This document shows, piece after piece, positions 24,193-61,685 of a stretch of DNA of 64,000 nucleotides; position 1 is the stretch's first letter; each line of letters starts with the position of its first letter. The notes under the pieces are model-generated. The model was not told where the DNA came from and did not search any database. It was given only the letters and a program-made list of their open reading frames with translations. The DNA lies in assembly GCA_011605725.1 (NCBI GenBank), contig JAAOZP010000012.1:192001-256000 (forward strand). The letters are read 5' to 3'. A program made the position numbers and the translations under genes. This DNA is from Nitrososphaerota archaeon. GTDB taxonomy: Archaea; Thermoproteota; EX4484-205; JAAOZP01.

Positions 24193-24201
24193 CGCGCGCG
24201 C
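24193..24201. repeat. (CG)n tract CGCGCGCGC at a pseudogene junction
   Basis: Read directly from the sequence. Confidence 0.9.
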
Positions 24202-24354
24202 CTTCCGAAGGAAGCGAGAGTAGTCTCCATGATAGCTGTAGGCTATTCTGGTGAGAAAAAGGAGCCCGTGTCAAACTGGAAATCCCTACAGGAGATCGTT
24301 GGATACAACCACTGGCAGCACAGGCTTTTTAAAATCTTAAGGAACCAGGCTTAA
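24202..24354 (+). pseudogene. C-terminal remnant of a nitroreductase-family gene
   Basis: 'LPKEARVVSMIAVGYSGEKKEP..WKSLQEIVGYNHW' parallels the C-terminus of the intact nitroreductase at 31190-31708; similarity starts right after CGCGCGCGC. Confidence 0.7.
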
Positions 24355-25347
24355 TACTTCTGTGGATCTTAAAACCTCTTCTCCATGAAGATTAATGATT
24401 GAGTCAAAGTTCTCCCGGGTAACGTTCGTAGTTGTCCCGACTCCGGTTACGCACGCTGCGCCAGCAGCCTGCCCCGCCATTAAGATCCTCTTTAAATCCT
24501 CAAGAGGGATTTCCGACAGGCCTCCAAACATCCTATTCTTAAGCAGTGTGAATATTATTCCTGCGCTGAACGCGTCCCCGGCGCCAGTCGGGTCAACCAC
24601 TTCAACTTTAAAACCTTTCTGCCTTACGTATTTCCCATTCTTCAAAACAGCCAGCGCACCCTTTTCGCCGAGGGTTATGAAAGTAATGCCGTTAACCCTT
24701 TTACTCGCCTCCCTCATCCCATAGGCCAAACTATCTGTCTTGAATATGTTTTTCAGCTCTATGTCGTTACAGTGGAAAAAATCTGCGTAATCCAAATGCT
24801 CAACAATATAATCCCATTGCCTCCCATATGGCTCCACCATGTCGACGAACGTTAAGCTACCGGTCTTCTTCGCGGTTTTAAGAACCTCTCCAAGCCTTTC
24901 GTCGAATTCACCGCATAATCCGGACGCGGCGTAGAAAATCCGTGGTTTAACCTCAAGCACCTTCTTGGAGACGAAATCCGGGTCGAGATGCAGGCTTGCA
25001 CCCAGGTCCAGGTGGAACCTCCTGTCCTCACCTTTAACCACAAGCGCAATGTTTTTAGTCGTCCCCGTTTCAGCCAGCTCCATCAAGTGTGTGATAACCC
25101 CCTTCTCCTCTAAAACGCTTTTTATGAACCATCCGAAAACATCCCTGCCGATTGCCCCCACTATGCCGACAGAACCCTTTTCAAGGCCCAGCTGGATCAA
25201 ATCTATGGAAACGTTGCAGGGGTGGCCTCCAACAGTCAGCTTAACGCTTTTCTTAGCAAAAACTATGTGACCAGGATCCGCGATTTTAGGCAGTTCAGCC
25301 AGAATCATGTCGGCAACGATGAACCCTGAGGCGAGGACTTTCATCAA
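24337..25347 (-). CDS. PfkB/ribokinase-family carbohydrate kinase
   Basis: 'GGHPCNV', 'GRDVFG', 'TLGEKGA', 'DPTGAGDAFSAG'. Confidence 0.9.
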   Translation of the reverse strand: MMKVLASGFIVADMILAELPKIADPGHIVFAKKSVKLTVGGHPCNVSIDLIQLGLEKGSVGIVGAIGRDVFGWFIKSVLEEKGVITHLMELAETGTTKNIALVVKGEDRRFHLDLGASLHLDPDFVSKKVLEVKPRIFYAASGLCGEFDERLGEVLKTAKKTGSLTFVDMVEPYGRQWDYIVEHLDYADFFHCNDIELKNIFKTDSLAYGMREASKRVNGITFITLGEKGALAVLKNGKYVRQKGFKVEVVDPTGAGDAFSAGIIFTLLKNRMFGGLSEIPLEDLKRILMAGQAAGAACVTGVGTTTNVTRENFDSIINLHGEEVLRSTEVLSLVP

Positions 25348-25388
25348 GACAGATCATGGTTAAGAGTTTTTAATCTTTTCTAAACTTC

Positions 25389-26417
25389 CTAAACCCATTT
25401 CCTGAGGGTAGTATCCTCTGCAACAGACCTGTAGAAGCGCCTCATCCTTTCAATCAGCCTAGTAACCCTATCCCTGGAAAAACCTTTCTCAGAGTGAAGG
25501 AACTCCATCAACCATGCTTCGTCAAGCCCCGAGTACTTGACGGAATACTCTTTTTTAACATCAGGCTGCATGAATACTTTTCTGACCTCAGCGTAATTCT
25601 CCGGAGCCTTTGGAAGAATGCTTCTAGGGATTTCATCTATCCGCCCATACTTCTTAATAAGCTGCAGAGCCTTTTTAGGACCAATCCCCTTAACACCCTC
25701 GTTGAAATCAGTACCCACGAGAATAGCCACATCCACCAGCTGCTCCCTAGTGATGCCCAGCCTACCTAAGGCCTCTCCAGCCTCTATAAGCTCAGGCTTC
25801 AAGACTTTTAAATAGCCCTTGCTCGGGTAGAACTCGGTGCTACGTATAGCCAGGTTTCTAACAAGCCTGGGAGAACCGTAGAGCAAGGTATCATAGTCCC
25901 TACCTGCCACAGCATACGCCTCCCCCCTTTGAACGATAAAGGCCGCCTGAGCCTCAGCATCAGAAGGAGCCTCGACAAACGGAAGGCCCATTGCAGAAAG
26001 CAGGATCTTAGCGTCCTCGACCATCGCCGTCGTCAGCCTAGTGGAAGAAACAGCCTTGGAAAAGGCTTCTGCAAGCCTACCTTCTTTCAACGCTAGCCTC
26101 CACTCCGCCAAAGCCTTCTCCCTCCTGAGCTTCCTCTCCTCCAGCTCCCTCAGCTTAAGCTGAGCAGGCCTTCCGTCGAAGACGAATATGAACCTCATGC
26201 TGTAGTCACACAGTAGCCTTGTAACCCTGAAGGCGAAGCCTATCAGGTGAGAAGTAACGTTGCCCTCAGCATCCGTGAAGAACGTTCCGTCAGGCTTACG
26301 TATCAAAGCGAGAAACTGGTAGAGCATCTGGCTAGCGTCAACAGCGAAGCTTTTCCCTCTAAGGCTTTCAAGACTCGTCGGTTTCCTGCTGATTATGGGT
26401 GTTAAATTAACCCCCAT
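25389..26417 (-). CDS. fen: Flap endonuclease-1 (divergent)
   Basis: 'MGV', 'AVDA...LYQFL..IR..DG', 'TSHL.G', 'FVFDG', 'APSDAEAQAA', 'DYD.LL.GSP', 'GTDFN.GVKGIGPKKAL', PIP-like tail 'TTLRKWV'. Confidence 0.9.
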   Translation of the reverse strand: MGVNLTPIISRKPTSLESLRGKSFAVDASQMLYQFLALIRKPDGTFFTDAEGNVTSHLIGFAFRVTRLLCDYSMRFIFVFDGRPAQLKLRELEERKLRREKALAEWRLALKEGRLAEAFSKAVSSTRLTTAMVEDAKILLSAMGLPFVEAPSDAEAQAAFIVQRGEAYAVAGRDYDTLLYGSPRLVRNLAIRSTEFYPSKGYLKVLKPELIEAGEALGRLGITREQLVDVAILVGTDFNEGVKGIGPKKALQLIKKYGRIDEIPRSILPKAPENYAEVRKVFMQPDVKKEYSVKYSGLDEAWLMEFLHSEKGFSRDRVTRLIERMRRFYRSVAEDTTLRKWV

Positions 26418-26500
26418 CCGAACCTACACCAAGTATTGCTAAAGTCCGAGTAACGTTTATGGTTTTCTGAACATATTCCTAATCTGAATAAAGGCTGTTC

Positions 26501-26608
26501 CGCGCGCGCTCGGTGAACGTGTCTGGGTTGCTCAGCTTACTGGATGCGAAGTACGTGTTTAAACAGTGGGTCGGTTTCTTCAATTCTACGGAAAGCTCGG
26601 CGCGCGCG
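26501..26608. repeat. Two (CG)n tracts (26501-26509 and 26600-26608) within a surface-protein remnant
   Basis: Read directly; the second tract is flanked by the inverted repeat CTCGGC/GCCGAG. Confidence 0.85.
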
Positions 26609-26797
26609 AGCCGAGGCTGGAGACGAGCCATGTACTCTGAGGACTACATGAGCATGATGATCACGGTGGCTGTTATGTCCCTAGTGATAATCGCAGCCAT
26701 CGTCGTATTCTTATGTAGAAGAAGGAAAAAGATTCCTTCCCTGCCACCTTCGCCGCCTCCGCCAACTCCTCCGTCGCATTCCACATCTTTTACATAA
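26510..26797 (+). pseudogene. C-terminal remnant of a cell-surface protein (beta-repeat fragment, TM anchor, basic cluster, Pro-rich tail)
   Basis: 'AKYVFKQWVG', 'YSEDY', TM helix, 'RRRKK', 'PPSPPPPTPP'; no signal peptide or N-terminal body. Confidence 0.6.
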
Positions 26798-26882
26798 ATA
26801 TGTATTCCCCTCTTTTTCCCATGTTTTAAGAACATAAGATTTATTAATTCGAAGAATGGTATTTATCCGGTAAATCTGAAAG

Positions 26883-27116
26883 ATGGCAGAAAGTCGAGTA
26901 GGTTCGAAAGGAGAGCTATTTCTACCTAAGAAGATTAGGGAAGAGCTAGGCCTTCACCCTCATACAAAAGTAATCTATAGGGTTGAGGGAAACAGGCTTG
27001 TGGTTGAACCAATTCCAAGCCTTGAGGAAGTGCTGAAGAAACAGCCATCTGTTGAGATCACCCTTGAAGAATTCCATGAATTCAGAAGGGAGCTGTCTAG
27101 GAGGGCAGAGTCTTGA
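26883..27116 (+). CDS. AbrB/MazE/SpoVT-family antitoxin (VapB-like)
   Basis: 'VGSKGELFLPKKIREELGL'; overlaps the PIN gene by 4 nt. Confidence 0.88.
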   Translation: MAESRVGSKGELFLPKKIREELGLHPHTKVIYRVEGNRLVVEPIPSLEEVLKKQPSVEITLEEFHEFRRELSRRAES

Positions 27117-27574
27117 AGATACTGTTAGATACGACGTATCTTCTACCAGCGATAGGCATCTCTCTTAAGGATTTTCCAAGAGACGTTTTAATTATGTTAA
27201 GGCGTAAAGGAAATCAGGTCTTTATAAGTGACATAAGTATCTTTGAGCTTTCAGCCAAAGGTGCTAAATACGTTAGTGCAAAGAAACTCTCTGCTGAAAG
27301 GGTGATTGAGGGCATAAGAGCCATAGTCTTCGATGAAAACATAGTTAAGATACCCATTCATGAAAGCAGGATTCTGCTCACGGCCTTAAGGATTAGGGAT
27401 TGGCTCAGTGACTTTATAGACTGTCTTATAATCTCATCAGCCCTAAATCAATGCGATGCCTTGATAAGTGAGGATACCGATATTCAAAGCCTAGAAGGAA
27501 ACAGAGCGTTTCACGAATTGTTAGAAATGATAAATCCTAAATTTGAGATCCGTACACTAGCTGAAATCACTTAA
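27113..27574 (+). CDS. PIN-domain toxin (VapC-like)
   Basis: 'ILLDTTYL', 'ISIFEL', 'DFIDCLI', 'LISED'. Confidence 0.88.
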   Translation: MKILLDTTYLLPAIGISLKDFPRDVLIMLRRKGNQVFISDISIFELSAKGAKYVSAKKLSAERVIEGIRAIVFDENIVKIPIHESRILLTALRIRDWLSDFIDCLIISSALNQCDALISEDTDIQSLEGNRAFHELLEMINPKFEIRTLAEIT

Positions 27575-27799
27575 ATCATGTTGAAGCTCTTTTATTGTTA
27601 TTGTATTTAGTGCACCGAGCGATCCTGCAACCTTCGTCTCTCTCCAGCTTCTAAATTCCACCAGCTCTCTCACGAAAAAGCCCTAGTATAAGTCAGCTCG
27701 GCCGATATTTGCCGCGCCCCTGGAAGCTGGACTTCGTTGTGCAGAAGAAGAAAATAACCTAATTTTCCATATTTTTCTCAGCTACCGGTAGGTTTCGCC

Positions 27800-28330
27800 T
27801 TATCCAGTGTATAAATCCGGGTGGAGCTTTCTTGCCATAGCGTATAGAAGAGTGTGTTCCCATGATTCTTGCCTATTTGTAAGCTCATTCGTCAATACTC
27901 CTACGGCCCCCATCTTTCTTTTGGTTCCACTTATGCCAGTAATTTCATCAATCACATCCCCCAGCTCCTTTCCACTCAGAACCTTTTTCACGACGACGTC
28001 TGGCAGCTCAATACCACCGCCACACCCAAGTGCCACTTCGCCTTCCACACCGGCAACAGCACACCAGCCGGTTAGAAAATATCTGCCAGCCCTTCTGGCA
28101 ACTCCGCCCTCGAGACCAACGCCAAGATCGGCTTCAGCTTTTACGATGGCCTCCTTGGCTCGGTATATCGCTCCCTCGGCACACTCCTCGTCCGTTAAAG
28201 GCGTGTGCGAAACCTTTGACGCGACATCCACTGGAATGATCTCGACGTCGCCGTATATTCTTCTCATAATGTTTTCTGTTGCTTTTATTTTAACAGGATT
28301 TGTTGAGCCTACTGCAACTTTTATTACCAT
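27800..28330 (-). CDS. yjjX: Inosine/xanthosine triphosphatase (non-canonical purine NTPase)
   Basis: 'VGSTNPVKI.A', 'GA..RA', 'GVGLEGG', 'ELGDV', 'GAVGVLT...R'. Confidence 0.9.
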   Translation of the reverse strand: MVIKVAVGSTNPVKIKATENIMRRIYGDVEIIPVDVASKVSHTPLTDEECAEGAIYRAKEAIVKAEADLGVGLEGGVARRAGRYFLTGWCAVAGVEGEVALGCGGGIELPDVVVKKVLSGKELGDVIDEITGISGTKRKMGAVGVLTNELTNRQESWEHTLLYAMARKLHPDLYTG

Positions 28331-28510
28331 CGGGCATGATTCCTGAAACAGTTTTAAAAGGCTTACGATTTAAGGAAAACTACATCGCATCATTAGTTAT
28401 TTCTAAGTTTCTCCGCCATCTCTTTCTCTTTTGACTTGAAAACTGCCTTGGCTCTGGAAGGCTTTACGGAAGCGCGCTATGGATGGAACCAGATAGGTTA
28501 ATGTATCACG

Positions 28511-28673
28511 CTAGCCTTCAGGAAAAACATCCTTTGGAGGATTTACAACCGGTTGTATGACCATCTTCTTACCTTTTAACATCTCAATCTTTATCACCCG
28601 GCTTAAGACCATTCTTCTATATGCCTTTAGGGAAAACCATCTGTCCTTTCGTAGATACTTTTACTTCAGCAGT
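28511..28673 (-). pseudogene. Degraded AbrB/MazE-family antitoxin gene
   Basis: Hand translation gives 'TAEVKVSTKGQMVFPKGI*KNGLKPGDK', then a frameshift to 'IEMLKGKKMVIQPVVNPPKDVF'; not in the ORF track. Confidence 0.7.
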
Positions 28674-28713
28674 GCACTAAAGGTTAAATTTTAGGGTAGT
28701 TTACATACTACCG

Positions 28714-29310
28714 TTGGCTAGAGGACAAAGGCTCAGGACTCCTCTCGAAAAAGAGGAGGTTGCTCGGCTTAAGGCTGGGGACATCATATACGTAAGCGGA
28801 GAAGTGTTTACTAGCAGGGATAGGACTCAGAAGTTGATACTGGAGAACCGGGATAAGTTGCCTTTTTCCCCTAAAGGCCTGTTAGAGTTCCACGCTGGCC
28901 CGATAGTTAGGAGAGAAGGTTCAGAATGGAAGGTTGTTTCAATCGGTCCCACTACAAGCTTCAGGATGGAGAACAGTGAATATGGTTTCATTAAAGAGAC
29001 GGGGATTGCAGGCGTCATTGGAAAAGGCGGCATGGGAAGTAAAACCAGAGAAGCATGCAGGGAGTTTAAAGCCTTTTACGGAGTTCTTCCAGGTGGAGCT
29101 GCAGCTCTGATAGCCAAAAGCGTTAAACGCATAATTGGAGTTTACTGGCTTGAAGAGCTTAGTGTTCCCGAGGCCATGTGGCATCTCGAAGTCGAGAACC
29201 TTGGGCCGATAACAGTTGTTATTGATTCTTTCGGAAATGACTTATACGAAGACCTAAGAAAAAGGATTGACGAAAACCTTTCAAGAACTTTGAAAAGCTT
29301 GGGGGAATAG
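28714..29310 (+). CDS. Fe-S hydro-lyase (class I fumarase / L-tartrate dehydratase) beta subunit
   Basis: 'LKAGD...SG...T.RD', 'HAGP', 'GPTTS.RM', 'IGKGG', 'PEAMW'. Confidence 0.9.
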   Translation: MARGQRLRTPLEKEEVARLKAGDIIYVSGEVFTSRDRTQKLILENRDKLPFSPKGLLEFHAGPIVRREGSEWKVVSIGPTTSFRMENSEYGFIKETGIAGVIGKGGMGSKTREACREFKAFYGVLPGGAAALIAKSVKRIIGVYWLEELSVPEAMWHLEVENLGPITVVIDSFGNDLYEDLRKRIDENLSRTLKSLGE

Positions 29311-29314
29311 AGCT

Positions 29315-30187
29315 ATGGAAGGCGGAGACCTTAAAGACCATATTGTTGAAGCAATAAGACTCTGCGAAACATCTCTTCCAATCGACGTGAAGAACCGTTT
29401 GAAAAAAACATACGAGAATGAGGATAGAGAGGTTCCGAAGAAAATACTGGGTGCTCTGTTGAAAAATGTTGAAATTGCTGAAAAGGAGGGTAGACCGATA
29501 TGTCAAGATACGGGCATATTAACCTTCTACGTTAAGAGAGGCGAATGGAAGGAGAATGAGCTACATAGAATCATCGTTGAAGCAGTTAAAGAAGCCAGTA
29601 GTAAAATACCGTTAAGGCCGAACGCCATAGACTTCCCGTCTAAGAAGAACTCTGGAAACAATACCGGAAGATTCATTCCATGGATTGTCTGGGAGCCAGG
29701 TGGAGAACATTTGGAAATAACCATAATAGCTAAGGGCGGTGGCTCTGAGGCTGTTTCAAGCCTAAGAGTTTTACCGGCTACTGTTGAGGAAAAAGAGATT
29801 TTCCGAGCGGTGCTTGAAAGCGTTGCTCAAGCCGGGGCAAGACCATGTCCTCCGATTATTCTCGGAGTCGGAATCGGGCCTTCTTCGGAAATAGCTCTTG
29901 AACTGGCTAAGAAAGCTGTTTATCTGCGGCCTCTGGGAGAAAGGCATGAGGACAGTGTTATCGCAAGAATAGAGGAAGAACTCTTAAGAATGGTTAACCG
30001 TCTTGATATAGGTGTCCACGGCTTCGGAGGCTTAACGGCGATGGATGTTCATTTGGAGTATGCGTCCATTCATCCTTCATCCATGGTTGTTGGAGTCGTT
30101 GCAAGCTGCTGGGCATTGAGGAAAGCCACGCTGAAGGAATGCGGCGGTATTGTGAAGATTACAAGCCACAAGATGTATCTAACATGA
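29315..30187 (+). CDS. Fe-S hydro-lyase (class I fumarase / L-tartrate dehydratase) alpha subunit
   Basis: 'PICQDTG', 'LRPN', 'KGGGSE', 'CPP...GVGIG', 'SCWALR'. Confidence 0.9.
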
Positions 30188-30253
30188 TTATTATCTGAAG
30201 CGAACATTACTAGCGAAACGCTTTTATGCAAGATGTGGAAATCAGTTTGGAAT

Positions 30254-31156
30254 TCAGGTTTCAGATATTATCTTCCTGACGAATTCCACGTCTTTTTTCA
30301 AAACCGCTTTTCTTTCTTCCCCAACATATTTCCCCAGAGACTCGTCTTCAATCGTTAAATCACCAGCATACCCTGCTTTTCTTAAAACCTGAACTACTCT
30401 TTTCAAGTCGACATCTCCCTCGTAAAGAGGTACTCCGACCTGAGGATAATCTTCCCCGGGACGCCTCTGCTTCTCCCTTTTAGCTTCAGGATACTTCAGA
30501 TTTTTAAGGTGAGTATGTTTAACTAGCTTCGCATATTTTTCTATGAGCTCATGAACCTTGCTCAACGGATAACCATACCAATAGAAGTTTCCAGTATCCA
30601 GCGTTATGCCTACTCTTTCATCATCTATCTCTTTAAACGCGTAGTCTAAAAACCGCTCATCGTTGCTAACATAGCCATGGTTTTCAACAGCATAAGCTAC
30701 CCTACTACCCTCTGTTTCCTTTAAGAGGCGTTTCATTATTTCAACAAAATGCTTAGCATACTCTTCAACAGGTTTCTCTTCTCTTATTTGCATATGCGAG
30801 TTTATTCTTATGATTTCAACCCCGATTTCATCCGCAAGCTGCGTCGCCTTTCTAATGTAATCCAACTCCTCTTCAAGATTTTCGTTTGAAAAATCGTTCT
30901 CCAGCAATATTGTGCATGGTTTTAAACCTGTTTTTTTAGAAAAATCTAGAAATTGTCTTCTCTCATCAGCGTCTCTCAGGTTAAAACCTAGCTTAATTAC
31001 ATGATCCATATCTTCATACGTATTTTGAGTCAATGTTTTGTTGACATACATTTCATATCTGTCTAAACCTAAATCCTTCAGACCCTTAACCAGATCCTCA
31101 TAACCGACCCATATTACCGTGAAATCCCTAACCGCGACGTACATTTTTGGCTTCAC
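30254..31156 (-). CDS. Sugar phosphate isomerase/epimerase (xylose-isomerase-like TIM barrel)
   Basis: 'AVENHG', 'LDTGNFYWYG', 'HTHLK', 'GDVD', 'TIEDE'. Confidence 0.85.
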   Translation of the reverse strand: MKPKMYVAVRDFTVIWVGYEDLVKGLKDLGLDRYEMYVNKTLTQNTYEDMDHVIKLGFNLRDADERRQFLDFSKKTGLKPCTILLENDFSNENLEEELDYIRKATQLADEIGVEIIRINSHMQIREEKPVEEYAKHFVEIMKRLLKETEGSRVAYAVENHGYVSNDERFLDYAFKEIDDERVGITLDTGNFYWYGYPLSKVHELIEKYAKLVKHTHLKNLKYPEAKREKQRRPGEDYPQVGVPLYEGDVDLKRVVQVLRKAGYAGDLTIEDESLGKYVGEERKAVLKKDVEFVRKIISET

Positions 31157-31189
31157 TGGTAGAAAGCATTTTACAAGGATTATCGCGCA

Positions 31190-31708
31190 CTAGTTTTTTG
31201 ATTTAAACCCATATTTTTCCCAATGCGTCACTTCTTCAAGCGGTCTTCTGTTTCTACTGGGCTTCTCATCAGGATAGCCGACTGAAACAGTGCATAGGAC
31301 TCTAAGCCCCTCAGGTATTCCAAGTAGCTTCTTTATAGGTTCTTCAAAGGGAGTATTCAGCACACCCATCCAGCATGTCCCAAGCCCCATAGAATGGGCT
31401 GCAAGAAGGAAGTTTTGCACGGAAACCGCAACATCCCCATGGTACCAGTTGCTGCTCCTCCCGGGGTCAGCTATGAAAACCACTACGACAGGACTGTCAG
31501 CCATGAATCTCCCGTACCTATGTATTTCTGCAAGCTTCCTCCTGGTTTCTGGATTCTTCACCACTAGGAACTCCCATGGCTGGGAGTTGTTAGCCGATGG
31601 AGCCCATCTGGCTGCTTCAAGACACTCGATTATCTTCTCATCCTCCACCGGCGTCGACTTATACTTTCTAATGCTCCGCCTTGTTTTAATCGCTTCCATC
31701 ACGTCCAT
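31190..31708 (-). CDS. Nitroreductase family protein
   Basis: 'RRSIRKY', 'APSANNSQPWEF', 'LAAHSMGLGTCW', 'VGYP'. Confidence 0.92.
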   Translation of the reverse strand: MDVMEAIKTRRSIRKYKSTPVEDEKIIECLEAARWAPSANNSQPWEFLVVKNPETRRKLAEIHRYGRFMADSPVVVVFIADPGRSSNWYHGDVAVSVQNFLLAAHSMGLGTCWMGVLNTPFEEPIKKLLGIPEGLRVLCTVSVGYPDEKPSRNRRPLEEVTHWEKYGFKSKN

Positions 31709-31838
31709 CTTTAAACACCTAGGAAGATTTCACGAAACATCTTAATATGTTTTACTGTAATCGATAGGAATCATTATAACGTCAGAATCACAGTAATGAG
31801 GGGAAAACAGTAAACTAGATTTGTAAACCAGAAAGTTT

Positions 31839-34189: not shown

Positions 34190-34214
34190 GGAATACCGAT
34201 TTAAAACTGGCTTG

Positions 34215-35336: not shown

Positions 35337-35379
35337 GAAGCCCCTCTAGACACGAACTCTTAAAAAACTTAGCCCTCAA

Positions 35380-36481: not shown

Positions 36482-36530
36482 CTAAACAGAACCACTTAAA
36501 TAAGGGAGTTTAAGGCTTCAAGGGAAGCTG

Positions 36531-49426: not shown

Positions 49427-50196
49427 TTTTACATCATTTTTATTGAACAGAGACCTATAATTTAAGTGTTGTGGAAGTTTCTGGAACCCTATAGGAATGG
49501 ATCCCTCCAGCAACATAGGAAAGTTAAGAAAAGCATAAAAGAAGTCTAAGGAAAATTCGCTCCTCACCCATTTTTTCCCCGGTCTTCGACCATTTGCTTA
49601 ACCTCGCTTAAGCTCCCCTTCAATATAAATCTTCAGCGGAACGTTCTTGGCCTCGTGCAGCTCTATCGCAAGCCTCACATAGTCCTTAGCCCCTTCTCCC
49701 GTGAGACCTTTTCCTATGAAAAGACGTATCCCGATCTTCTTGCCATGCGATCTATGATAATATGATAATCCACATATGTGAAGAAATCCTCTATCTGCCC
49801 TAAATCTATCCCTAATCAGCTTGAAATTCGCTCCTCATAAGGATTGGATGAATCTAATCATTGAGATACCACTAGAAACCACATTTCAGCATCATACTTT
49901 CCATGGATCCCGGCTACCGTAGCGACGGCAAGGCATGTCGTGCTCGAGAAACGTTTAATGCGAAGACTAAGGCAGGTTTAATCGAGTATGCACTGAAGGT
50001 TTTAACACGCATCCTCCGATAACAATATGGAATAAAGGGTGAAGATGTTGAATAAAAACTCCAACGAGACGAAATTAGATAGCATCAAAACTTCTGCGGT
50101 AGTGGATATAGCACGCACACTATTACTTAGCTAAGACTCTTTCTTCCGGTTTGAAAAGCTTAGGCTTCTTTATGATTTTTATAAACTGTTCTCGAA

Positions 50197-50204
50197 GCGC
50201 GCGC
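50197..50204. repeat. (CG)n tract GCGCGCGC in a degenerate intergenic region
   Basis: Read directly from the sequence. Confidence 0.85.
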
Positions 50205-50636: not shown

Positions 50637-50649
50637 AGATAACGATGGA

Positions 50650-51996: not shown

Positions 51997-52005
51997 CACG
52001 CACTG

Positions 52006-54195
52006 TTAACGTTTTTTCAGAATAATGCTTGCAACCTTATCTTTGAAAGGCGGTATTTCAACCACTAGCTTTCCATGAACCAGCCTAGCATTTAGATCAG
52101 CATCCTGACCGTCAACAGTGTAGAGTTTACATTCCACTTCACCAGTAAAGCTATAGAAATCAGCGTCAACCTCTATTAGAAAACAACTATTTTTCTCAGA
52201 TCTGTAATCAATAATGTTTATCAACAAGCTTCTTCCATCACAACCTTTAAACGCTTTCACAACCACCTTCTCAGAGTAACACTTTAACCCCAAGTCATCC
52301 ATGAACCTTGAATCATACTGTAGCCATTTAATCCTCTTCCTGAGAGCTATCAGTCTCCTCACATACTCAGTTAACGGCTCACCCCTGTTAATCCTTGACC
52401 CCAGTGGAAGCGGTGTCACGTCGAACCTGAATCCGAGCAGGTATACCCTGTTTATAAGGTCTTCCAAGCCAACTTCACCACCCATGTCAGGGTAGTAGCA
52501 CTTGCCTATCCATTCGACAGGCGGGTTAGCGAAGCCGTCAATTATAATATACTCTGGGAAACTGTATGCAAAAACTTCTGGGGCAGGATACATGGTTTGG
52601 CTTGAGAAACTAGTATAGAGATGGAGACTACAGTACTGCCCCACTGAATCCCCGTTTCCCTCGATACATATGGAGAAGTCTTGGTTATGCTTCCTACCTT
52701 CTTCAGAGAGCCTCCGTATTGTCTTAACTCTTCCCTGAGCTGAACAACCATGATGCTTATGACCATGTGCAAAGTTGAAACAGTAGGAAACAGGTGGGGA
52801 AAAAGTTTGATCTATATAGGCGAAGTCTGCACCATACTCCTTCAAGTATTTTTCCACAACCCAGTGAACCAAGTAATTCTGCCATCCCTCAGAGTACGTG
52901 CACATTATTCTGAAACCATCGTTTTCGAATTCTCTTCCAGGATACTGCACGGTCACTGACCCGTCGAAATTGGTTTGAGCATAATTCCTGAACTCGCCCA
53001 TCCAGTCCGGGATCTTCTCAGATTCAGGAATCCTGATGCGTCTCGCGGAAAGGTATTCTTTTACAAACGGCGAGAATGCTTGAATGTTGAAGTAGAAACC
53101 TACTGTACCACCTTTACTTTTAACCGAAGATATTGCTTTCTTAAGCTCTTCAACAGTCCCCAGTCTTGGATCAGGATAGTAGAACCTGTAGCAACACCCG
53201 TCTCCAACCATCTGACCCCATAGCTGAACATGGTTTAACCCGAGATATTGAGCATCCCTGAAAAAATCTTCAATATCTTTAAATTTGAACTTTATCTCTC
53301 CCCCAGCCTTAAAATGCACACCATACCATCCGTCGCTCCATTTCAGCTTTTCAGGAATATTGGGCTTTACCATCCAGGACTCAGCCCATTCCCTATATTT
53401 GTCAGCAGCCCAGTGCCAATCTCCTTCATGCACCCCGATTACAAACGGGCTTGACCTCCAAGAGCTTCCAGCAGGAACATATGCATACTTCCTCATGCCA
53501 AGGTTCATCACTCCTCTTGAGCAGTCAGGAATCGATTCTAAGGCAGTAAGTATCAGCTCCTTATCATAACTGGCAATATAGAGGCCTGCTTTCTCATCAT
53601 AAATATCCATCCACATCATTGAAGCAAAGCCGCCGTAAAGCAATGTTCTATGATAGGTCCCACATTTCTCGACAGGGTTCTTGATTTTCTCCCCGAAGCG
53701 ATTTGGCCTAACCAGTATATCGTCTTCACTAGAATCGCCTATGCATACTCCTTTTAACTGTGGAAAGCCTACTCCGACAACATCGTCTGAACAACCTGGA
53801 TTAAGAGTGTTGTCCACCTCAACATCACAGCTTATAAGCTGACTTTCACCCTCAAGCATAAAACTGCATTTAACATCTACTGACTCTATCCTATGGAGGA
53901 TCTCTACTGAAGAACGTGAACCATCCTTGCTTAAACGGATTCCCCTCAGGGTCTCAGGTCCAGATGAAACAACTCTAAACGGCTCATCGTCATTCGCATA
54001 GACTGATGATTTCTTTCCCTTCTGAAGAAGCCAAATGTAAACCAGCTGGTCGGCGGAATGTTTTAGATATGTGGTTGAAACCGTCTTGTTAAGGATCTGT
54101 CTTATCCCTCCGCTTTCAGTGCTGAACACCACCTCAACCTTACTGTTGCTTAGAATTAAATCATGATCCTCCTTTTCATCATACGATGAAACCAT
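52006..54195 (-). CDS. DUF6259-like putative glycoside hydrolase (beta-sandwich plus TIM barrel)
   Basis: 'SMMWMD.YD', 'HEGDWH.AAD.YR.W', 'YYPDPRLG..EEL', 'MC.....WQ', 'YGAD..YIDQ', 'CF...HGH'. Confidence 0.7.
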   Translation of the reverse strand: MVSSYDEKEDHDLILSNSKVEVVFSTESGGIRQILNKTVSTTYLKHSADQLVYIWLLQKGKKSSVYANDDEPFRVVSSGPETLRGIRLSKDGSRSSVEILHRIESVDVKCSFMLEGESQLISCDVEVDNTLNPGCSDDVVGVGFPQLKGVCIGDSSEDDILVRPNRFGEKIKNPVEKCGTYHRTLLYGGFASMMWMDIYDEKAGLYIASYDKELILTALESIPDCSRGVMNLGMRKYAYVPAGSSWRSSPFVIGVHEGDWHWAADKYREWAESWMVKPNIPEKLKWSDGWYGVHFKAGGEIKFKFKDIEDFFRDAQYLGLNHVQLWGQMVGDGCCYRFYYPDPRLGTVEELKKAISSVKSKGGTVGFYFNIQAFSPFVKEYLSARRIRIPESEKIPDWMGEFRNYAQTNFDGSVTVQYPGREFENDGFRIMCTYSEGWQNYLVHWVVEKYLKEYGADFAYIDQTFSPPVSYCFNFAHGHKHHGCSAQGRVKTIRRLSEEGRKHNQDFSICIEGNGDSVGQYCSLHLYTSFSSQTMYPAPEVFAYSFPEYIIIDGFANPPVEWIGKCYYPDMGGEVGLEDLINRVYLLGFRFDVTPLPLGSRINRGEPLTEYVRRLIALRKRIKWLQYDSRFMDDLGLKCYSEKVVVKAFKGCDGRSLLINIIDYRSEKNSCFLIEVDADFYSFTGEVECKLYTVDGQDADLNARLVHGKLVVEIPPFKDKVASIILKKR

Positions 54196-54292
54196 GCTTC
54201 TTTAAAAAGCCGTCAAGCATAAATGTTTTTCCCGGCTGCCGAAAACACGCTAAATTTTTAAGCCCATTGAGAAGAAAACAATAGGTTGAATA

Positions 54293-55060
54293 TTGAAGAT
54301 AGATTGTCATTCCCACATTAACGGCAGGTTCTTTAAATGGGGAGTGGAGTTGAAAAATCTTGTAGAGGCTGCTGATAAACTCCGTATCGATAAACTGTGC
54401 TGCTCAATACCCTTCGTTGAAGGCATGCCTACACCTAGCGAGTTTAAAACCTGTAATGACGAGATGGTTAGAGCGATGAAGGAATACCCTGGCAAGATTC
54501 TCGGTTACTGTTTCGTTAACCCCGGTTATCAACAGGAATCTCTTGAAGAGGTTGAGAAGAGGGTTCTGGAAGAAGGGATGATCGGCGTAAAACTGTACAA
54601 CCAGTATAAATGTTCCGATCCAATTGTTTTCCCAATTGTTAAGAAGACTGTAGAGCTTAAGGTTCCAATCCTGCAGCATGCAGGACATCTTACAGATCCT
54701 GCTGAAGCCTCCAGGCAGCCAAATATTTCTGATGCTCGCGACATCTCCTACTTGGCCTCTCTGTTTCCGGAAGCAGTGATAATAGAGGCTCATCTTGGTG
54801 GAGGAGGAGACTGGGAGTGGGCTTTGAAGATTTTGAGAAACACTCGTAACGTTTACGTTGATACGAGCGGCAGCGTAATAGATTGCGGGATGATAGAGAA
54901 AGCAGTTAAACTCTTAGGTGCGGAAAGACTGCTGTTCGGCACTGATTTAAGCATGGAAGAAGGAGTTGGTAAAATATTGGACGCTGAAATAAGTGAGCAC
55001 GATAGGAGCCTCATATTTGGGGAAAACATGCGGCAGATCCTAGAGGCGAGGTTCAGATGA
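54293..55060 (+). CDS. Amidohydrolase_2 family metallohydrolase
   Basis: 'IDCHSH', 'GVKLY', 'QH', 'AHLGGG', 'DTSGS', 'LFGTD'. Confidence 0.88.
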   Translation: MKIDCHSHINGRFFKWGVELKNLVEAADKLRIDKLCCSIPFVEGMPTPSEFKTCNDEMVRAMKEYPGKILGYCFVNPGYQQESLEEVEKRVLEEGMIGVKLYNQYKCSDPIVFPIVKKTVELKVPILQHAGHLTDPAEASRQPNISDARDISYLASLFPEAVIIEAHLGGGGDWEWALKILRNTRNVYVDTSGSVIDCGMIEKAVKLLGAERLLFGTDLSMEEGVGKILDAEISEHDRSLIFGENMRQILEARFR

Positions 55061-55860
55061 TTATAGACTTCAACACGTATCTTGGGCAGTGGCCATTCAG
55101 AAGGCTTTGCGCTAGAACAGCGTTAGAAGCCTTAAAGTGGATGGATAAGAATAGGATAAGCATTGCAGTAGTCTCATCCCTCAACTCTGTGCTCTACATG
55201 GATCCGCACGATGGGAATTATGAACTCTTAGAGGAGGTTGAACAATACGGTGAAAGATTTGTTCCGCTTGCTGTTGTTAACCCCAAATACCCGGGTTGGG
55301 AGAACGAGTTAGAGGAATGCATTAGCCTCGGTTTCAGAGGGTTGAGGCTATACCCGCAGTACCATAACTATTTGTTAACGGATGAAGATTGTTTAAGACT
55401 TGTTAAAAAAGCCTCTGAGAAGAATCTTGTCGTCTCGATACCGGTTAGGCTTAGAGACGGTAGGGGGCGTCATTGGATGGATTTGGCGAGAGATATTAGT
55501 CTAGACGAGTTAAAACAGCTTGCGGAGAAATCTCCGGAAACGAAGATAGTGGTTCTAGAGGCAAGGGGGGTTGTCGACACCCCATTAATCAATTATTCCA
55601 ACGTGTATTTCGAAATATCTAGGATGAATGCTGCTTTCGGCGAGATTGACAGGTTGATTGAACAGGCCGGTGATTCTAGGGTGGTTTTCGGATCCGGATT
55701 TCCATTGAAATACTTGCAGAGTGCCATCTTAAAAACTAAACTTATTAAGAAGCCGAGGGAAACCATTGAGAAAATACTATGGAGGAATGCGTGCAGCCTC
55801 CTGGGCTTAGATCAAAAAGAACTCCGGTTAGGATCTATTGAAAACATGTTCCTTCCGTAG
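55057..55860 (+). CDS. Amidohydrolase_2-fold protein with degenerate metal ligands
   Basis: 'IIDFNTYLGQWPFR' (no HxH), 'GLRLYPQYHNY', 'VFGSGFP' (no Asp), 'ILWRNA'. Confidence 0.8.
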   Translation: MIIDFNTYLGQWPFRRLCARTALEALKWMDKNRISIAVVSSLNSVLYMDPHDGNYELLEEVEQYGERFVPLAVVNPKYPGWENELEECISLGFRGLRLYPQYHNYLLTDEDCLRLVKKASEKNLVVSIPVRLRDGRGRHWMDLARDISLDELKQLAEKSPETKIVVLEARGVVDTPLINYSNVYFEISRMNAAFGEIDRLIEQAGDSRVVFGSGFPLKYLQSAILKTKLIKKPRETIEKILWRNACSLLGLDQKELRLGSIENMFLP

Positions 55861-56644
55861 TATGTTAGAAGAGTGCCTATAGCCTCACCAGCCCCCACGT
55901 TCGAAGAGACTACAGGCGTAGCCATAATCCCAATATCGCTGCGAGCAATGTTTCCTGTTGCAGCACTCATGCATTCCCAGACGCTTGGATGTTTCAGGAG
56001 AAATCTTACGGTCGAGTTTTTCACAGCCTTTAAAAGATCAGGATAGTAGTTGAACGCTGCAGCCATTGCTAGAGAGCATGATTTTGCCCATACTGGGCCT
56101 CTCCAATAAACATCTTCCTCAAAACCAGGTTGGCTGGGAGCGAGAGTATAAACCCCGTAGTCCCCGATCAGTCTGAGAAAATTCTTTCTAGCTTGCCGAG
56201 CCTTCTCGGGATCAACTAGTCCGTATGCAAATGGGAAAAGCCCATCCACACCTATCCTAGTGTCTAGAGAACCATCCTGGTGGAGTACACCGTACCAGTG
56301 TAAGTCTTCATCCCAAAGGATTCGATTCATGGCCCGCCTAGTTTCCTCAGCGCGCGCGACGGTTGATACTTCATCGTCCTGAAATGGAAAACGTTTCTAG
56401 ACAGCCTCCTGCCTGACAAGTCTGGGAAACTGTATTCTCCGAATTTTAAAGCAGCGACTGGAGCTTCTTCATAAGTTGTTTCCTCCCTGTTGTCAAGGAA
56501 CCAGTCGGTAGAACCGAAGTCAGAAGGATATGCAAACGAAATAGAGAAGTCATCCTCCTTCACAAGGATAGCAGTACACCGGGGCAGCTTCTCATTAAAA
56601 CTATCTTTCACTAGATTCCAAACATCCTGCCTTCTCGATAACAT
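55812..56644 (-). pseudogene. Internally deleted six-hairpin glycosidase (GH63/trehalase-like) gene
   Basis: N-terminal fragment of about 97 codons, then GCGCGCGCG (56350-56358), then in a new frame 'AEETRRAMNRILWDED..WY', 'YWRGPVW', 'WEC....G'. Confidence 0.75.
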
Positions 56645-56743
56645 TACCTGAATAATAAAGCCAGCTTAGTATTAAGGCTTATTTTAAGAATTATTAACAA
56701 ATCTTTAAATAATGCTTACAAAGACTTTTTAAGAGGGCGAACA

Positions 56744-57958
56744 TTGGCAAAAGTTTCAGTTGTAAAGATTCCGCGAAAATGTTTCGACGAAGATGTATTC
56801 AATGGCGTGGAGCATAGCATAGAGCTACTAGGGGGACCGGAGGCATTTGCAAAAAGTGGTGACAAGGTGGTTGTGAAACCTAACGTTTTAAACGCTAGTG
56901 ACGTTGAGACAACAGACCCCCGCGTAATATATGCTGTTTCGAAAATATTTAGGAATATTGGATGCGACGTAATCATTGGTGAGAACCCGCTTGTTGGAAC
57001 AATATCCAGCGAGGTCTTTGAAAAGATGCGGATGAGAGAAATCGCTGAGAAGGCTGGAGTCAGATTTGTCGATTTCCGTAAGGATGAGCAGGTAACTGTA
57101 GATGTTCCAAACGCAAGAGGCTGCCACACGTTAAGAATAGCTAAAACAGTAATGGATGCTGACCTCATAATTAGTCTACCAGTTATGAAGCATCATGGAT
57201 TATGCAACGTTACGCTGGGATTGAAAAACATGTGGGGCGTTATAGGACCATCTCAACGGCGACTCGGCCACCTTAACAGTCTTAATTGGACGCTTGCAGA
57301 GTTAAACAGAATCCTACGAGTGAGACTAACTGTTATAGATGGTTTAATAGGAGTTGGCTACAGTGAGGCTTTCCCACTGGGGCTTATAATAGCTGGCGAT
57401 GATCCTGTTGCAACAGACGCCGTAGCCTGCCTTAGAATGGGTTTCAATCCAATGAATATCGAGCATATTCGTTATGCTCACGAGCTCGGATTGGGAGAGA
57501 TAGACCCACAGAAAATAGAACTGACGGGAATAACGCTTGACCAGCTTGTTAGAGATGGAAAAGCTGCGAGAAAAATGTTTGTAATGCCTCTTGCGAAGCC
57601 TGCGAGGCTTCTTAAAAAGGCTAGGAACGTTAAGCTAGTTCAGGGGGATGTCTGCTCCGGCTGTGAGAAAAAGCTCTCAATAGCGATAAAAAAGATTGGC
57701 GTAAGGCAGATTGCTGAAGGTCCTAGAATGGCGATCGTTATTGGCAGGGGTGCTAAGCCTTTAGCTGGACGTATAAACATTATCATAGGCAGGTGTCTCC
57801 AAGAATACAGAGACAAAGGGATCTTTGTAGATTATTGTCCAGCCTATGATTCGGATATACAGCAGGCTATTGAAGTTGCTCTCGGAAAACGAGAGAAAAT
57901 CACATATCTCTGGGACGAGCTTGAGCAGAAGATGGAGAAGGGATTACCCGGAGCCTGA
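56744..57958 (+). CDS. DUF362 family (Fe-S associated) protein
   Basis: 'VVVKPN', 'TTDPRV', 'SLPVMKHH', 'TLGLKNMWG', 'D.VA.DAV', C-terminal 'CSGC', 'GRC', 'YCP'. Confidence 0.85.
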   Translation: MAKVSVVKIPRKCFDEDVFNGVEHSIELLGGPEAFAKSGDKVVVKPNVLNASDVETTDPRVIYAVSKIFRNIGCDVIIGENPLVGTISSEVFEKMRMREIAEKAGVRFVDFRKDEQVTVDVPNARGCHTLRIAKTVMDADLIISLPVMKHHGLCNVTLGLKNMWGVIGPSQRRLGHLNSLNWTLAELNRILRVRLTVIDGLIGVGYSEAFPLGLIIAGDDPVATDAVACLRMGFNPMNIEHIRYAHELGLGEIDPQKIELTGITLDQLVRDGKAARKMFVMPLAKPARLLKKARNVKLVQGDVCSGCEKKLSIAIKKIGVRQIAEGPRMAIVIGRGAKPLAGRINIIIGRCLQEYRDKGIFVDYCPAYDSDIQQAIEVALGKREKITYLWDELEQKMEKGLPGA

Positions 57959-58039
57959 GTGGTTTAAAGGGATTAAGCGCGTGCTAAACTGAGTAGAACA
58001 GGTTCCAATAGTATGTTTTGGCGATTGAGACTACTGTCC

Positions 58040-59316
58040 TTAGGAAGACTCATCACGGGCCCCCTTCGATGACCTAAGGCAGTCAATAATCGCTTGAAAT
58101 ATTTGGTCTCCAGCATCTGGTGTTACTCTGCTCCAGCGTGCAAGCCTGGTTTCATAAGACCCTTTTTCAAAAGCTGCCTTATCAGGAATATATCCAACAT
58201 AATCCTCCGAGTATGCGGAGATTATTGTAGACCCATATCTCATTGTATTCGCCTCCTTATTTATCTTCAACCAGAATTCGACGAACAGTTCCCCGGGAAC
58301 AGATATGAATGCGACCTCGCTCCCCAGAGTCAGAGTCTGAACCAGCGTTTCAACCGCTCTCTTACTCTCCTTCGCAATTTCATACTCCTCATCAGCATAG
58401 AGAAGACTTGTGGCACACATTTGATCGTCCAACTTACTCTTACAAAGCTCATACTGCTCTAAGAATCTTCTCCTCGCCACTTCGAAGGGAGGCGGTCCCT
58501 AAGCTTCAACCTTACGATTCTATTCTGAACACTTATCCCATCGGGGACAAGTTCAACGGTGTTTCTCACCGCATCCATTAACGCGTGTTCCATACTTAAG
58601 CCCATTTTCGACATGAACCCCCTGCCCTTCTCCACAGGGTCAATATCTCCTGCCGATCCGGTTGTGAAAAAGACTTCAAAACCGTTTCTAAGCATCCTGG
58701 CGTAAAGTTCGCCAGGGTAGTCTGCGGAAACACCAAGATCAGTATTGCATACAGGGTGGCAGCAATAATTCGTCAAAACAATGTTAGAATCTCTATTTCT
58801 GATAAGCATGAAAGGCATGCGTTCATCGACAACATCATTCTTATACGTCCTATTGTAGGTTAAGCCCAAGACCTGAGTCATTCCGAGCCTAATGGAGGCG
58901 GGTATAGAGTTTTCACATGCTTCAGCCGCGGCTTCGACAATGCTCCCCATGAAGAAGCCCTCCCATTGTTTAAAAACCCTTTTCTCTTGACTCGTATATG
59001 GAAAAGTGTTTGGCCACATTGGAGTTATTGTCTCAGGCCCCGAGTGAGTATGCGTTGTTGTTAAAAATATTCGGGTTGAACTTATCCCAACCTTCTCTTG
59101 AATAATCCTCTTGACGCTGTCTGCAAAGTCCCTGTAAACTCCAAGCACATCGCAATGTATTAGAAGCACGGCTTCACCACGCGACTCCATATGTATAACG
59201 CTGACCATAAGAGGATCATGGATTGATTTAGAAGGACGGCCTAATCTATGCGCATAACCACCCAGCCTCAACCCTATGGGAGGCGTCACATCCCTCTTCG
59301 CATAACCAATCTTCAT
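58040..59316 (-). pseudogene. Neutral/alkaline ceramidase-like protein split by a single frameshift near 58485
   Basis: 'DVTPP.G..LGGY', 'HDPL', 'THTHSGP', 'NYCCHP', 'SADYPG', 'G.AGDI'; the second frame carries 'PGELF', 'YVGYIP', 'YE'. Confidence 0.8.
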
Positions 59317-59486
59317 ACCTATACGCCCTCTGGAAACGAGCCTCAACCGATTTTCAGCTTCGCAACATATTAAGTTTTTCGCGAAACATCATTTCCCCAT
59401 CTTTTTGAAATCCTGATCACTATCAGAAGAAAGGTCTTAAAAAGTCGTCCAGCTAAGAACGCGTGTTGTTGAACCAGCCTGCTACT

Positions 59487-60806
59487 TTAGTCGAGCTCTC
59501 TGATCTGCCGTTTCCTAGCGCCTCTAAGCCTCAATCCGTATTGAATCGTTAGAAGCTTCTCCGGCGTGAGCAACATACTGGTAGCGTAGAGGACGAGGAC
59601 CGTTAAGGCTGCGGAATACGGTATCCCGAGAATAGTTTCTAAAGGCACTGACGTCATCATGTCTCTAGCTATCATTATTGGGTATGATGTTGGTAAAGCA
59701 TATACTAGAAGCTGGAGAGCTAGAGGCAGCGTGCCTAGGTCCCCGTACATCATAAGGAAAGAGGGAACCATTATTGGGACTATTACTACTACCAGAAGAG
59801 AGTTCGCCATCCTGACATCGCTGCTTAGCGCTCCAATCGCCACGCCGAGAGAAGTTACGAAAAGTATTGCAAGTATCAGGCTGACGGCGAGAAGTATAAA
59901 GCTTTCTGGCGGTGGCGAAGGAAGTAATTGGGAAATGTTTCCAATGGGAAAGCCGAAACCTTGCATTGAAAGCATATTGTTAAAGTATAGGATGAACCCG
60001 CCTGTAAACAGGATGCTTCCAATCACAGCCAAGATGGAAGAGCCAAGCAGCTTTGCCAGCAGAATTTCATAGCGTGTCACTGGAAAGGTTAACAGCGTCT
60101 CCAACGTTTTCTCCTCGTTCTCAACCGCGGTTGCGGTAGCGGCGAACTGAACAACGGTAATCGATAAAATTAAAAGCAGCAGTGGAATCATAATACTGTA
60201 TCCCATTAGGAGTTGATTGAAAAATATTTGAGGAGGAACTTCAATTATTTTGTCCTTAAGTATTGAACGGGCTGAAATATTGAACGGGTCTCGAACAACA
60301 TCCGGAGAAATATTCGGATTAAGCTTCGACACTAACATGTTGCTGAAAAATTTCGAAGATAAGGTTAACATTCCCTCGATAGACGTGTAAACTCCTATTG
60401 AAGCTAGGCTCACGCTCTCCATTACCACATACACCTCAATGCTTGCCTTCCTGTAGTTAACTAGATCATTCTCAAACCCTTTTCTTATAACTAGCAAGGC
60501 TTTTGAACCGAGGTTTCTCGCTTCACCGATCGCAACCTCCAAGTCAGGAACATCTATTTTTACAATATCTGCACCTAGGCTGACGGACAGGTTTAAGAGG
60601 GTGTTGCTTAACGCAGTCTTATCACAGTCAAGCACAGCTATCTTCACACTCCTAGCGCCGGCTTCGATAGAGCTGCTCATCGAGGTTGAAATCAGGAAGC
60701 CGAGCAGCGGCATCAGTATCACTGGTATTACAAGGCCTATGTATATCCTAGGGTCTCTCAGAAGATCCTTAACCTCCTTCTCAACCAGTGGAAAAAGCCT
60801 CCTCAT
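59487..60806 (-). CDS. ABC-2 type exporter permease (NatB-like)
   Basis: 'KEVKDLLRDPR', 'ENEEKTLETLLT.PVTR..IL.AK', multiple TM helices. Confidence 0.88.
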   Translation of the reverse strand: MRRLFPLVEKEVKDLLRDPRIYIGLVIPVILMPLLGFLISTSMSSSIEAGARSVKIAVLDCDKTALSNTLLNLSVSLGADIVKIDVPDLEVAIGEARNLGSKALLVIRKGFENDLVNYRKASIEVYVVMESVSLASIGVYTSIEGMLTLSSKFFSNMLVSKLNPNISPDVVRDPFNISARSILKDKIIEVPPQIFFNQLLMGYSIMIPLLLLILSITVVQFAATATAVENEEKTLETLLTFPVTRYEILLAKLLGSSILAVIGSILFTGGFILYFNNMLSMQGFGFPIGNISQLLPSPPPESFILLAVSLILAILFVTSLGVAIGALSSDVRMANSLLVVVIVPIMVPSFLMMYGDLGTLPLALQLLVYALPTSYPIMIARDMMTSVPLETILGIPYSAALTVLVLYATSMLLTPEKLLTIQYGLRLRGARKRQIRELD

Positions 60807-61534
60807 CTACTGGCCACCTCGATAAAAGCCTCTTCCAGATTCGAAGCTCCAAGCTCATTTTTAATCTTCTTCGGCTCTCCTTCAAAAAGAACGTGACCCC
60901 GATGTATGAAAGCAACTCTGGTACACAGGTATTCTACTTCAAGCATATTATGGCTCGAAAGAACTATCGTTCCCCCCTCTTTGACATGTCTGCTTATAAC
61001 CTCCCTTATGTGCTTCGCATGGAAAACATCTAAGCCTGAAGTAGGCTCGTCTAAAATCGCCAGCTTCGGCCTCGTCATCAATGCTCTAGCTATCTGGAGC
61101 CTCCTCTTCATACCCTTGCTGTAAGTCTTCATCCTATCATCCACCCTTTCACCAAGTCCTGAGATGCTTATTGCCTCCTCAACAGCCCTGGATGCTTCAA
61201 CATTTGAATCAAAATATATTCTTGCAACTATAGACAAGTATTCGCGTCCACTCAGGTTTCTATACGTGCCAGCATCTTCAGCCAAGTATGAGATTAAAGG
61301 CCTGATTTTACTAGCTTCTTTAACAGCATCATAGCCAAGTATTTCGACGTAGCCTCTTGTCGGCAGAAGCAGTGCCGCCATTATTCTGAGAATAGTTGTC
61401 TTGCCCGCGCCGTTCGGCCCTATTAACCCATATATTTCACCTTTCTCAATCTGTAGCGAAACCCCGTCGACAGCCACTAGATCCCCGAAGCGTTTAACAA
61501 GGTTTCTGACTACAACTATGCTTCCAGCCCTCAC
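60803..61534 (-). CDS. ABC transporter ATP-binding protein (NatA-like)
   Basis: Walker A 'GPNGAGKTT', signature 'YSKGMKRR', Walker B 'ILDEPTSGLD', 'SSH'. Confidence 0.95.
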   Translation of the reverse strand: MRAGSIVVVRNLVKRFGDLVAVDGVSLQIEKGEIYGLIGPNGAGKTTILRIMAALLLPTRGYVEILGYDAVKEASKIRPLISYLAEDAGTYRNLSGREYLSIVARIYFDSNVEASRAVEEAISISGLGERVDDRMKTYSKGMKRRLQIARALMTRPKLAILDEPTSGLDVFHAKHIREVISRHVKEGGTIVLSSHNMLEVEYLCTRVAFIHRGHVLFEGEPKKIKNELGASNLEEAFIEVASR

Positions 61535-61685
61535 CGTGAACTCGTCCTATCGTAAGAAGGAAACTATTTAATTCTTATGTGGAAGGATACGGAGGCTGTT
61601 CAAAAGGTAGCGCGCGACCTCAGATTCCAGGTGCAAACAACCTCTAAGAAAGGTTTAATAGCATGCGAGTAACTAAACATTAAGA

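Follow-up and report, generated by a model that had tools for sequence, protein, structure and literature searches.

A fixed self-complementary GC filler as the probable scar of a dedicated end-joining route in archaea

The window considered here, i.e., the whole stretch of 64,000 nucleotides that was analysed (positions 192,001 to 256,000 of contig JAAOZP010000012.1), belongs to the reference assembly of an uncultured hot-spring archaeon of the Nitrososphaerota (GCA_011605725.1, termed G000; 2.23 Mb, 46% GC, 93% complete), and its subject is a set of seven alternating CG tracts, at 24193, 26501, 26600, 28472, 50197, 56350 and 61610. An earlier note on this DNA had listed these tracts, all coordinates and lengths of which proved exact, and had read them as possible scars of a stereotyped kind, left where parts of now broken genes were deleted, a reading that is supported by alignment to the intact alleles of sister genomes. 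These genomes (80–95% identity) keep longer intact versions of the loci, from which the ancestral alleles were read. No match to Rfam was found in the window. The features of the locus are:

24192–24201: new 8-nt filler (A followed by a CG repeat) in place of 504 bp, by whose loss a nitroreductase gene lacks its promoter and first ~150 codons
24199–24318, plus strand: 3′ remnant of the nitroreductase gene, readable from LPKEARV onward
26501–26509: new 7-nt filler, replacing 5,651 bp
26513–26797, plus strand: remnant of a PKD surface-protein gene
26600–26608: new 7-nt filler within the PKD-protein remnant, in place of 23 bp
26941–27754: segment with an antitoxin-like open reading frame (ORF) and a PIN gene (26885–27574), deleted in strains of runs X3 and X5 with GC filler in its place
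28472–28477: 6-nt tract, inside which homology to sister genome G002 stops
50197–50204: A(GC)4T tract, both neighbouring stretches of which are without homologs in the genomes compared
55812–56644, minus strand: two remnants of a GH63-like gene
56350–56358: new 6-nt filler, where a 660-aa GH63-like (MGH1) gene has lost 1,164 bp from its middle
61610–61616: 7-nt tract in a diverged intergenic spacer, ~15–38 bp shorter than that of relatives; scar or drift

Four junctions (24193, 26501, 26600 and 56350) are established base by base, and at each of them the ancestor is without a tract at either end, the overlap being at most 0–3 nt. The nitroreductase gene truncated at 24193 is intact in G008 (186 aa), the 5,651 bp lost at 26501 hold, in the G002 allele, a CARDB/C25 surface-protein gene (1352 aa) and the greater part of a PKD gene (590 aa), and the whole GH63-like gene is present in G002, G007 and G010. 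At 28472 the left homology runs into the tract and the right side is only ~72% alike; as far as the alignment goes, the tract probably marks where a few hundred bp were deleted. The placement of tracts at junctions of broken genes therefore stands at four sites and is consistent with a fifth, while the tracts at 50197 and at 61610, where relatives carry a similar purine-rich word, form no part of its support. It had also been said that all tracts lie outside intact coding sequences, and indeed none was found in an intact gene, but those at 26600 and 56350 fall inside short remnant ORFs (26513–26797 and 56327–56644).

Sequencing runs were surveyed through Logan assembled contigs of ~4 kb, rather than raw reads. 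Contigs of X1 (2025) and X2 (2017), which come from separate studies, cross the tracts at 24193, 26501 and 26600, and three junctions were in this way confirmed in independent samples, a check that the earlier note had proposed for raw reads. Runs X3 and X5 include strains with the ancestral sequence at 26501, where the ancestral continuation is visible as a loose end, and at 26600, where X3 has 16 extra letters. In X3 and X5 a further deletion, from 26941 to about 27754 (812–832 bp), is joined by ten new letters with (GC)4, and the window shows no tract at either end of this segment. Such an independent, filler-joined deletion indicates that the process has acted within the present population. 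Elsewhere in the window, a 271-bp segment (49566–49835) with a 14-bp direct repeat on both sides is absent from G002, and related sequence occurs elsewhere in G007 and G016.

The tracts stand out in number as well as in position. Alternating C/G runs of 2–5 nt occur in the window 3990, 807, 120 and 20 times, and those of 6–9 nt 1, 1, 1 and 4 times. The core of the filler, GCGCGCGC, was seen five times against 0.21 ± 0.48 expected (100 dinucleotide shuffles, none of which reached five), which bears out the rarity previously estimated by rough arithmetic. A genome-wide count against a Markov null model, also proposed in the earlier note, showed the tracts to be enriched and rare in long ORFs: GCGCGCGC is the top-ranked enriched 8-mer of G000, with 458 copies against 15.9 expected (both strands, order-3 model; 29-fold), and long ORFs, which cover 58% of the genome according to our own ORF caller, hold 11 of 131 8-mers (8%), 2 of 35 9-mers and 1 of 31 10-mers. 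Alternating C/G runs of 6, 7, 8, 9 and 10 nt number 223, 108, 131, 35 and 31 in G000, with a peak at 8 nt that no other dinucleotide pair has. A(GC)4T is ~100-fold enriched; A precedes and T follows 85% of the 8-nt tracts, and T and A stand one base further out in 52%. Within the genome, the tracts cluster in islands.

Alignment of tracts of at least 8 nt to ~1.58 Mb of G002 (about 70% of G002) and to intragenomic copies yielded 120 alignable halves, 101 of which are absent from the homolog (relative or source locus) and 19 of which are shared with a relative. The breakpoints concentrate between positions −2 and +3 of the tract, where minus counts outward from its edge and plus inward, and the flanks are in part non-ancestral (41 of 76 A's, 15 of 46 T's), so that the inserted unit is a sub-string of TA(GC)nTA, not the GC run alone; 29 of the 101 new halves share 1–3 ancestral nt with the tract. 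Among the 27 indels of at least 100 bp in which G000 is the shorter, 12 carry clean filler and 4 once-mutated filler, against a background of 0.4% and 1.2%; the other 11 are without filler, four of them showing microhomology and seven being blunt or unclear, and some filler-free events may be insertions in G002. Filler is scarcer among small indels (a tract in 16 of 62 of all events), and replacements of 17–23 bp likewise carry it; the ends of the longer allele carry a tract in 2 of 62 indels. This census makes the filler route a major one for large events, yet not exclusive, and implies that other joining routes coexist. Filler junctions show extra bases rather than overlaps, and microhomology deletions form a separate class. 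Variants that differ from A(GC)4T by one change are for the most part transitions, as expected of decaying scars, and from these variants the filler, once written, is shown to decay by C-to-T change. Old scars can also be reused as microhomology, since a deletion at C5:37450 runs between two older tracts.

Beyond deletions, the filler surrounds DNA brought from elsewhere. In G000, tract pairs less than 150 bp apart number 35 versus ~6, a six-fold excess inflated by the clustering in islands, and several pairs enclose a stretch of 60–170 bp copied from a distant source locus that is itself free of tracts. The segment C9:60796-60865, between two fillers, is 97% like C20:865-933, and C16:244-406, likewise between two fillers, is 99% like C1:24874-25035; further captures are found at C1:25191, C4:194882 and C20:36753. 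Fillers on both sides of arbitrary fragments argue against a transposon footprint or a fragile site and fit a mechanism that makes all ends compatible. A ~30-bp periodicity in the spacing of tract pairs, considered as a trace of histone-protected fragments, was rejected: it reached p = 0.005 in G000 post hoc and was not repeated in G002 or at other loci, and histones occur in scar-positive and scar-negative genomes alike.

That the signature is real is well supported, and we hold this with high confidence; we consider it probable that a dedicated route of end joining, in which a fixed self-complementary filler is used, left the tracts as its scars. By comparison of alleles, the filler (~6–12 bases) was shown to be new DNA at deletions, translocations and both ends of captured 60–170 bp fragments, with no need for homology between the joined ends. 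This fits newly written filler, one of three origins that the earlier note had offered, and goes beyond it, as the filler, judged from the alignments, takes in the A/TA flanks, marks captures and translocations, and accounts for the majority, not all, of large indels. In the proposed mechanism, each 3′ end would be extended by (T)A-GCGC..., through direct tailing or through 0–3 nt pairing with a small self-complementary oligonucleotide; the GC repeats of any two such ends could then pair in whichever 2-nt register, followed by fill-in and ligation. Annealing of this kind would account for four observed features: the two-fold symmetry, the 3–6 GC units, the A/TA flanks that are new in part, and the capture of free fragments. 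The sequence would fit tailing and linker models alike.

The distribution of the word is patchy. Its count within the genus is 0–9 in seven genomes and 22–339 in ten, and close relatives sharing the core machinery have 0–3 copies. Across the phylum (401 genomes), high counts of A(GC)4T are confined to this subclade, three genomes of another family and part of a further family; a member of the last, G105, has a single-contig 1.75-Mb genome with 22 A(GC)4T versus 0 control words. A 14-base version of the word, searched in all prokaryotes, gave many matches in Bathyarchaeia. In the Bathyarchaeia-type class (301 genomes), 28 genomes have at least 95 copies of GCGCGCGC, some merely from high GC. 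In one genome with an intact copy of the candidate gene described below (G455, C3:64000-82000, L558), the filler is in the other phase, TA-(CG)n-TA, and the written word may thus differ by lineage.

Which enzyme could write such a filler? Most likely it is an archaeo-eukaryotic primase (AEP), and the best candidate is a mobile, short stand-alone PriS-like AEP that G000 encodes at C7:378918-379796, beside dinB and a radA paralog. It has the DxD, SGxxGxH and third Asp motifs of the superfamily (invariant D112, D114, S162, G166, H168 and D220), its predicted structure (predicted local distance difference test score, pLDDT, 86) has PriS and the LigD PolDom as top fold matches, and its clade stands apart from replicative PriS in a quick tree (Shimodaira–Hasegawa-like approximate likelihood ratio test, SH-aLRT, 99). 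The gene is patchy and often fragmented, without the orthology and the one stable copy of a replicative PriS, which in G000 lies at C11:22886. Within the genus it occurs in seven scar-bearing genomes, often with extra fragments, and in none of six with 0–9 copies of the word. Loci chosen only by this gene, mostly from Bathyarchaeia, have, per 100 kb, 33.6 tracts in genomes and 35.3 in metagenomes, with 18 of 22 and 48 of 74 loci tract-positive (some of them the same DNA in both collections); control loci have 1.5 for PriS, 0 for two other control sets and 0 for eight HEPN-MNT loci, a small and weak control. A genome-wide accessory-gene control with MNT homologs yielded almost no Bathyarchaeia. 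In the class sample, 9 of 15 carriers (gene or relic) versus 19 of 286 others are scar-rich (at least 95 copies), an odds ratio of 21 in which kin are not independent.

No conserved partner of the gene was found among its neighbours, except the radA paralog within the genus, and no ligase among its recurrent neighbours, no genome-wide ligase search having been made. In the scar-bearing subclade, most genomes have the radA paralog overlapping with the short PriS-like gene (G000 C7:377873-379796; L167:5874-7797), and at C12:18265-18860 in G000 a truncated radA-AEP relic starts directly after an A(GC)4T tract. Two related non-replicative AEPs of G000, C1:1195-2535 (446 aa) and C7:146131-147045 (304 aa), are patchy but widespread in the phylum, with little or no Pfam match. 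The former, an AEP fusion, was rejected as writer: it is intact (73% identity) in scar-free G003, is widespread in scar-free families and was not found in scar-rich G140, G375 and G380, and 86 kb of its homolog loci contain 0 tracts. Many genomes of the Bathyarchaeia-type class also have a second, ~260-aa PriS-like clade (YSGRGFH) beside PriS, in scar-rich and scar-poor genomes alike (L343, L347-L349, L352, L529, L545, L546). Many decayed (43–51) and few fresh (37–38) tracts were counted in G009 and G010, in which the short PriS-like gene was not found; the ratio looks as if the process had stopped, and it is the same in G006, where the gene is intact.

Several points weigh against the reading developed here and against its proposed writer in particular. 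We know of no primase that writes a fixed alternating repeat; the support from runs consists of assemblies, and 11 of the 27 large indels are filler-free. The short PriS-like gene was not found in G427 (601 copies, 86% complete) and G488 (250 copies, 92% complete), two genomes of a single contig each that are rich in fresh scars and show only ordinary PriS, nor in G105, G375, G380 and G009; it is therefore no more than a candidate writer. Scar freshness is the same with or without it (p = 0.59), and six carriers hold only 9–25 copies. It may be cargo picked up by scar-rich genomes; it may also be a writer that comes and goes or sits on unbinned elements, or one of several writers. Given end joining, the short PriS-like family is the likeliest writer, though at less than even odds; another enzyme comes close behind, and replicative PriSL is somewhat less likely than either. 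In the boldest version, any DNA end would receive a single fixed self-complementary sequence from a mobile stand-alone primase-polymerase that uses no nucleic-acid template, and the Ku-free, homology-free joining so allowed would drive the loss of genes and the formation of mosaic islands across several lineages of archaea; this version we regard as doubtful.

The rival that survives best, and that we consider improbable, requires no dedicated system: snap-back or slippage of the normal replicative polymerase or primase would seed a short GC pair at a break and expand it. The 29 halves that overlap the tract by 1–3 ancestral nt, the existence of scar-rich genomes without the short PriS-like gene and the preference of PriSL for G/C insertions (PMC12019639) speak for it, but most halves have no G/C seed, an A or TA that is not ancestral recurs, the word is nearly absent from close relatives that share the core machinery, and the phase varies by lineage (TA-CG... 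in G455). Less probable still, and already largely refuted, is a mobile element or site-specific recombinase that inserts, deletes neighbouring DNA and leaves GC-rich ends or a target. The symmetric stereotyped word, the patchy distribution typical of mobile agents and the clustering in islands would suit such an agent; against this, a self-comparison of assembled G000 found no multi-copy element ending in the word (unassembled repeats could hide one), filler length and A/TA flanks vary, no fixed target was found at the breakpoints, and both random 60–170 bp fragments and tiny 17–23 bp replacements carry the filler. Hence the excised-element footprint, the earlier note's third option, is disfavoured. 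A ~375-bp repeat with ~4 copies in G000 (C4:210608-210981, C7:437913-438288, C17:625-1000, C19:164232-164604), several near contig ends, is probably part of an insertion element and does not end in the GC word.

The two remaining rivals are very unlikely. Pre-existing GC palindromes (HIP1-like, Z-DNA or a protein-binding site), fragile or recombinogenic, could seed deletions, as the earlier note had also suggested with microhomologies and Z-DNA hot spots, and 19 of 120 halves are indeed common to a relative, with one deletion (C5:37450) between two older tracts; yet at the four window junctions neither end of the longer allele has a tract in 2–4 relatives or strains, long-allele ends carry a tract in just the 2 of 62 indels mentioned, and the tracts avoid genes and decay, unlike HIP1 (PMC5861425), so on these alignments the palindromes are refuted as origin and survive only as secondary reuse. 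A library or assembly artefact (ligation chimeras, gap filler) might be feared since all genomes are metagenome assemblies and the evidence comes from assembled contigs, but the same junctions lie inside 4-kb contigs of two independent studies (2017, 2025), between species some tracts are common and others decayed, counts follow lineage, and the word also occurs in the single-contig genome of G105. The absence of ancestral tracts and the independent contigs thus reject hot spots and assembly error, and the fragment captures make an element footprint unlikely.

End joining through a written filler bears on how Ku-less archaea rejoin double-strand breaks. It provides a natural mutational signature, found at the majority of recent large indels and in several lineages and countable in any genome, by which gene loss and DNA capture can be dated and located; it also names a testable enzyme. 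If true, universal sticky ends would give archaeal cells a means to join, delete and shuffle DNA of any kind and to capture it, and if a primase writes the filler without template, this would be a new polymerase chemistry and a possible tool for homology-free ligation.

How does filler joining relate to known systems? Bacterial and archaeal non-homologous end joining (NHEJ; Ku and LigD with its AEP polymerase domain) also joins unrelated ends with added nucleotides, and the candidate writer has the same fold, but LigD additions are short and their sequence is not fixed. Moreover, Ku (PF02735) was not found in G000 (93% complete) and four other scar-bearing genomes, with a positive B. subtilis control, contrary to the Ku-type system that the earlier note had suggested. 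Primase-mediated microhomology-mediated end joining, described for PriSL of Saccharolobus islandicus, is likewise archaeal and Ku-independent, and employs a primase with terminal transfer that anneals 2–4 GC pairs and leaves G/C-biased insertions at breaks; its indels are, however, mostly 1–2 bp on existing microhomology, whereas here a fixed 6–12 nt palindrome is added and arbitrary fragments are captured (PMC12019639). HIP1 of cyanobacteria shares the over-representation (29-fold here) of a GC-rich 8-bp palindrome, but is conserved in coding and non-coding DNA (PMC5861425), while the GC word avoids genes (8% in long ORFs versus 58% coverage), is lineage-new at junctions (101 of 120 halves absent from the homolog) and decays. 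The insertion sequence (IS)-excision enhancer, an E. coli AEP-helicase, is a mobile AEP that promotes end joining and deletions, yet it needs at least 4 bp of homology and a helicase domain and leaves no fixed filler (PMC9943667). Protein-templated poly(AC) synthesis by DRT3 (PMC13174585, PMC13314766) provides a precedent for a protein that alone dictates an alternating dinucleotide repeat, albeit with a reverse-transcriptase fold and an antiphage product instead of a repair filler.

No description of the filler was found in literature searches (mostly of open-access papers), to which extent the earlier claim of an undescribed system holds, and a fixed-sequence self-complementary filler has, as far as the literature was searched, no prokaryotic precedent. 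Filler joining lacks the defining features of Ku/LigD NHEJ, microhomology joining, HIP1, element footprints and telomerase. In its way of working it resembles end joining with filler DNA, and the nearest analogue would be the interstitial telomeric sequences inserted at double-strand breaks in vertebrates (PMC2246262, PMC7215372), where empty and filled orthologs likewise reveal a fixed, newly inserted repeat; those insertions need telomerase and its RNA, whereas here reverse transcriptase (PF00078) was not found in five scar-bearing genomes, though a divergent one could escape, and the repeat is self-complementary and much shorter.

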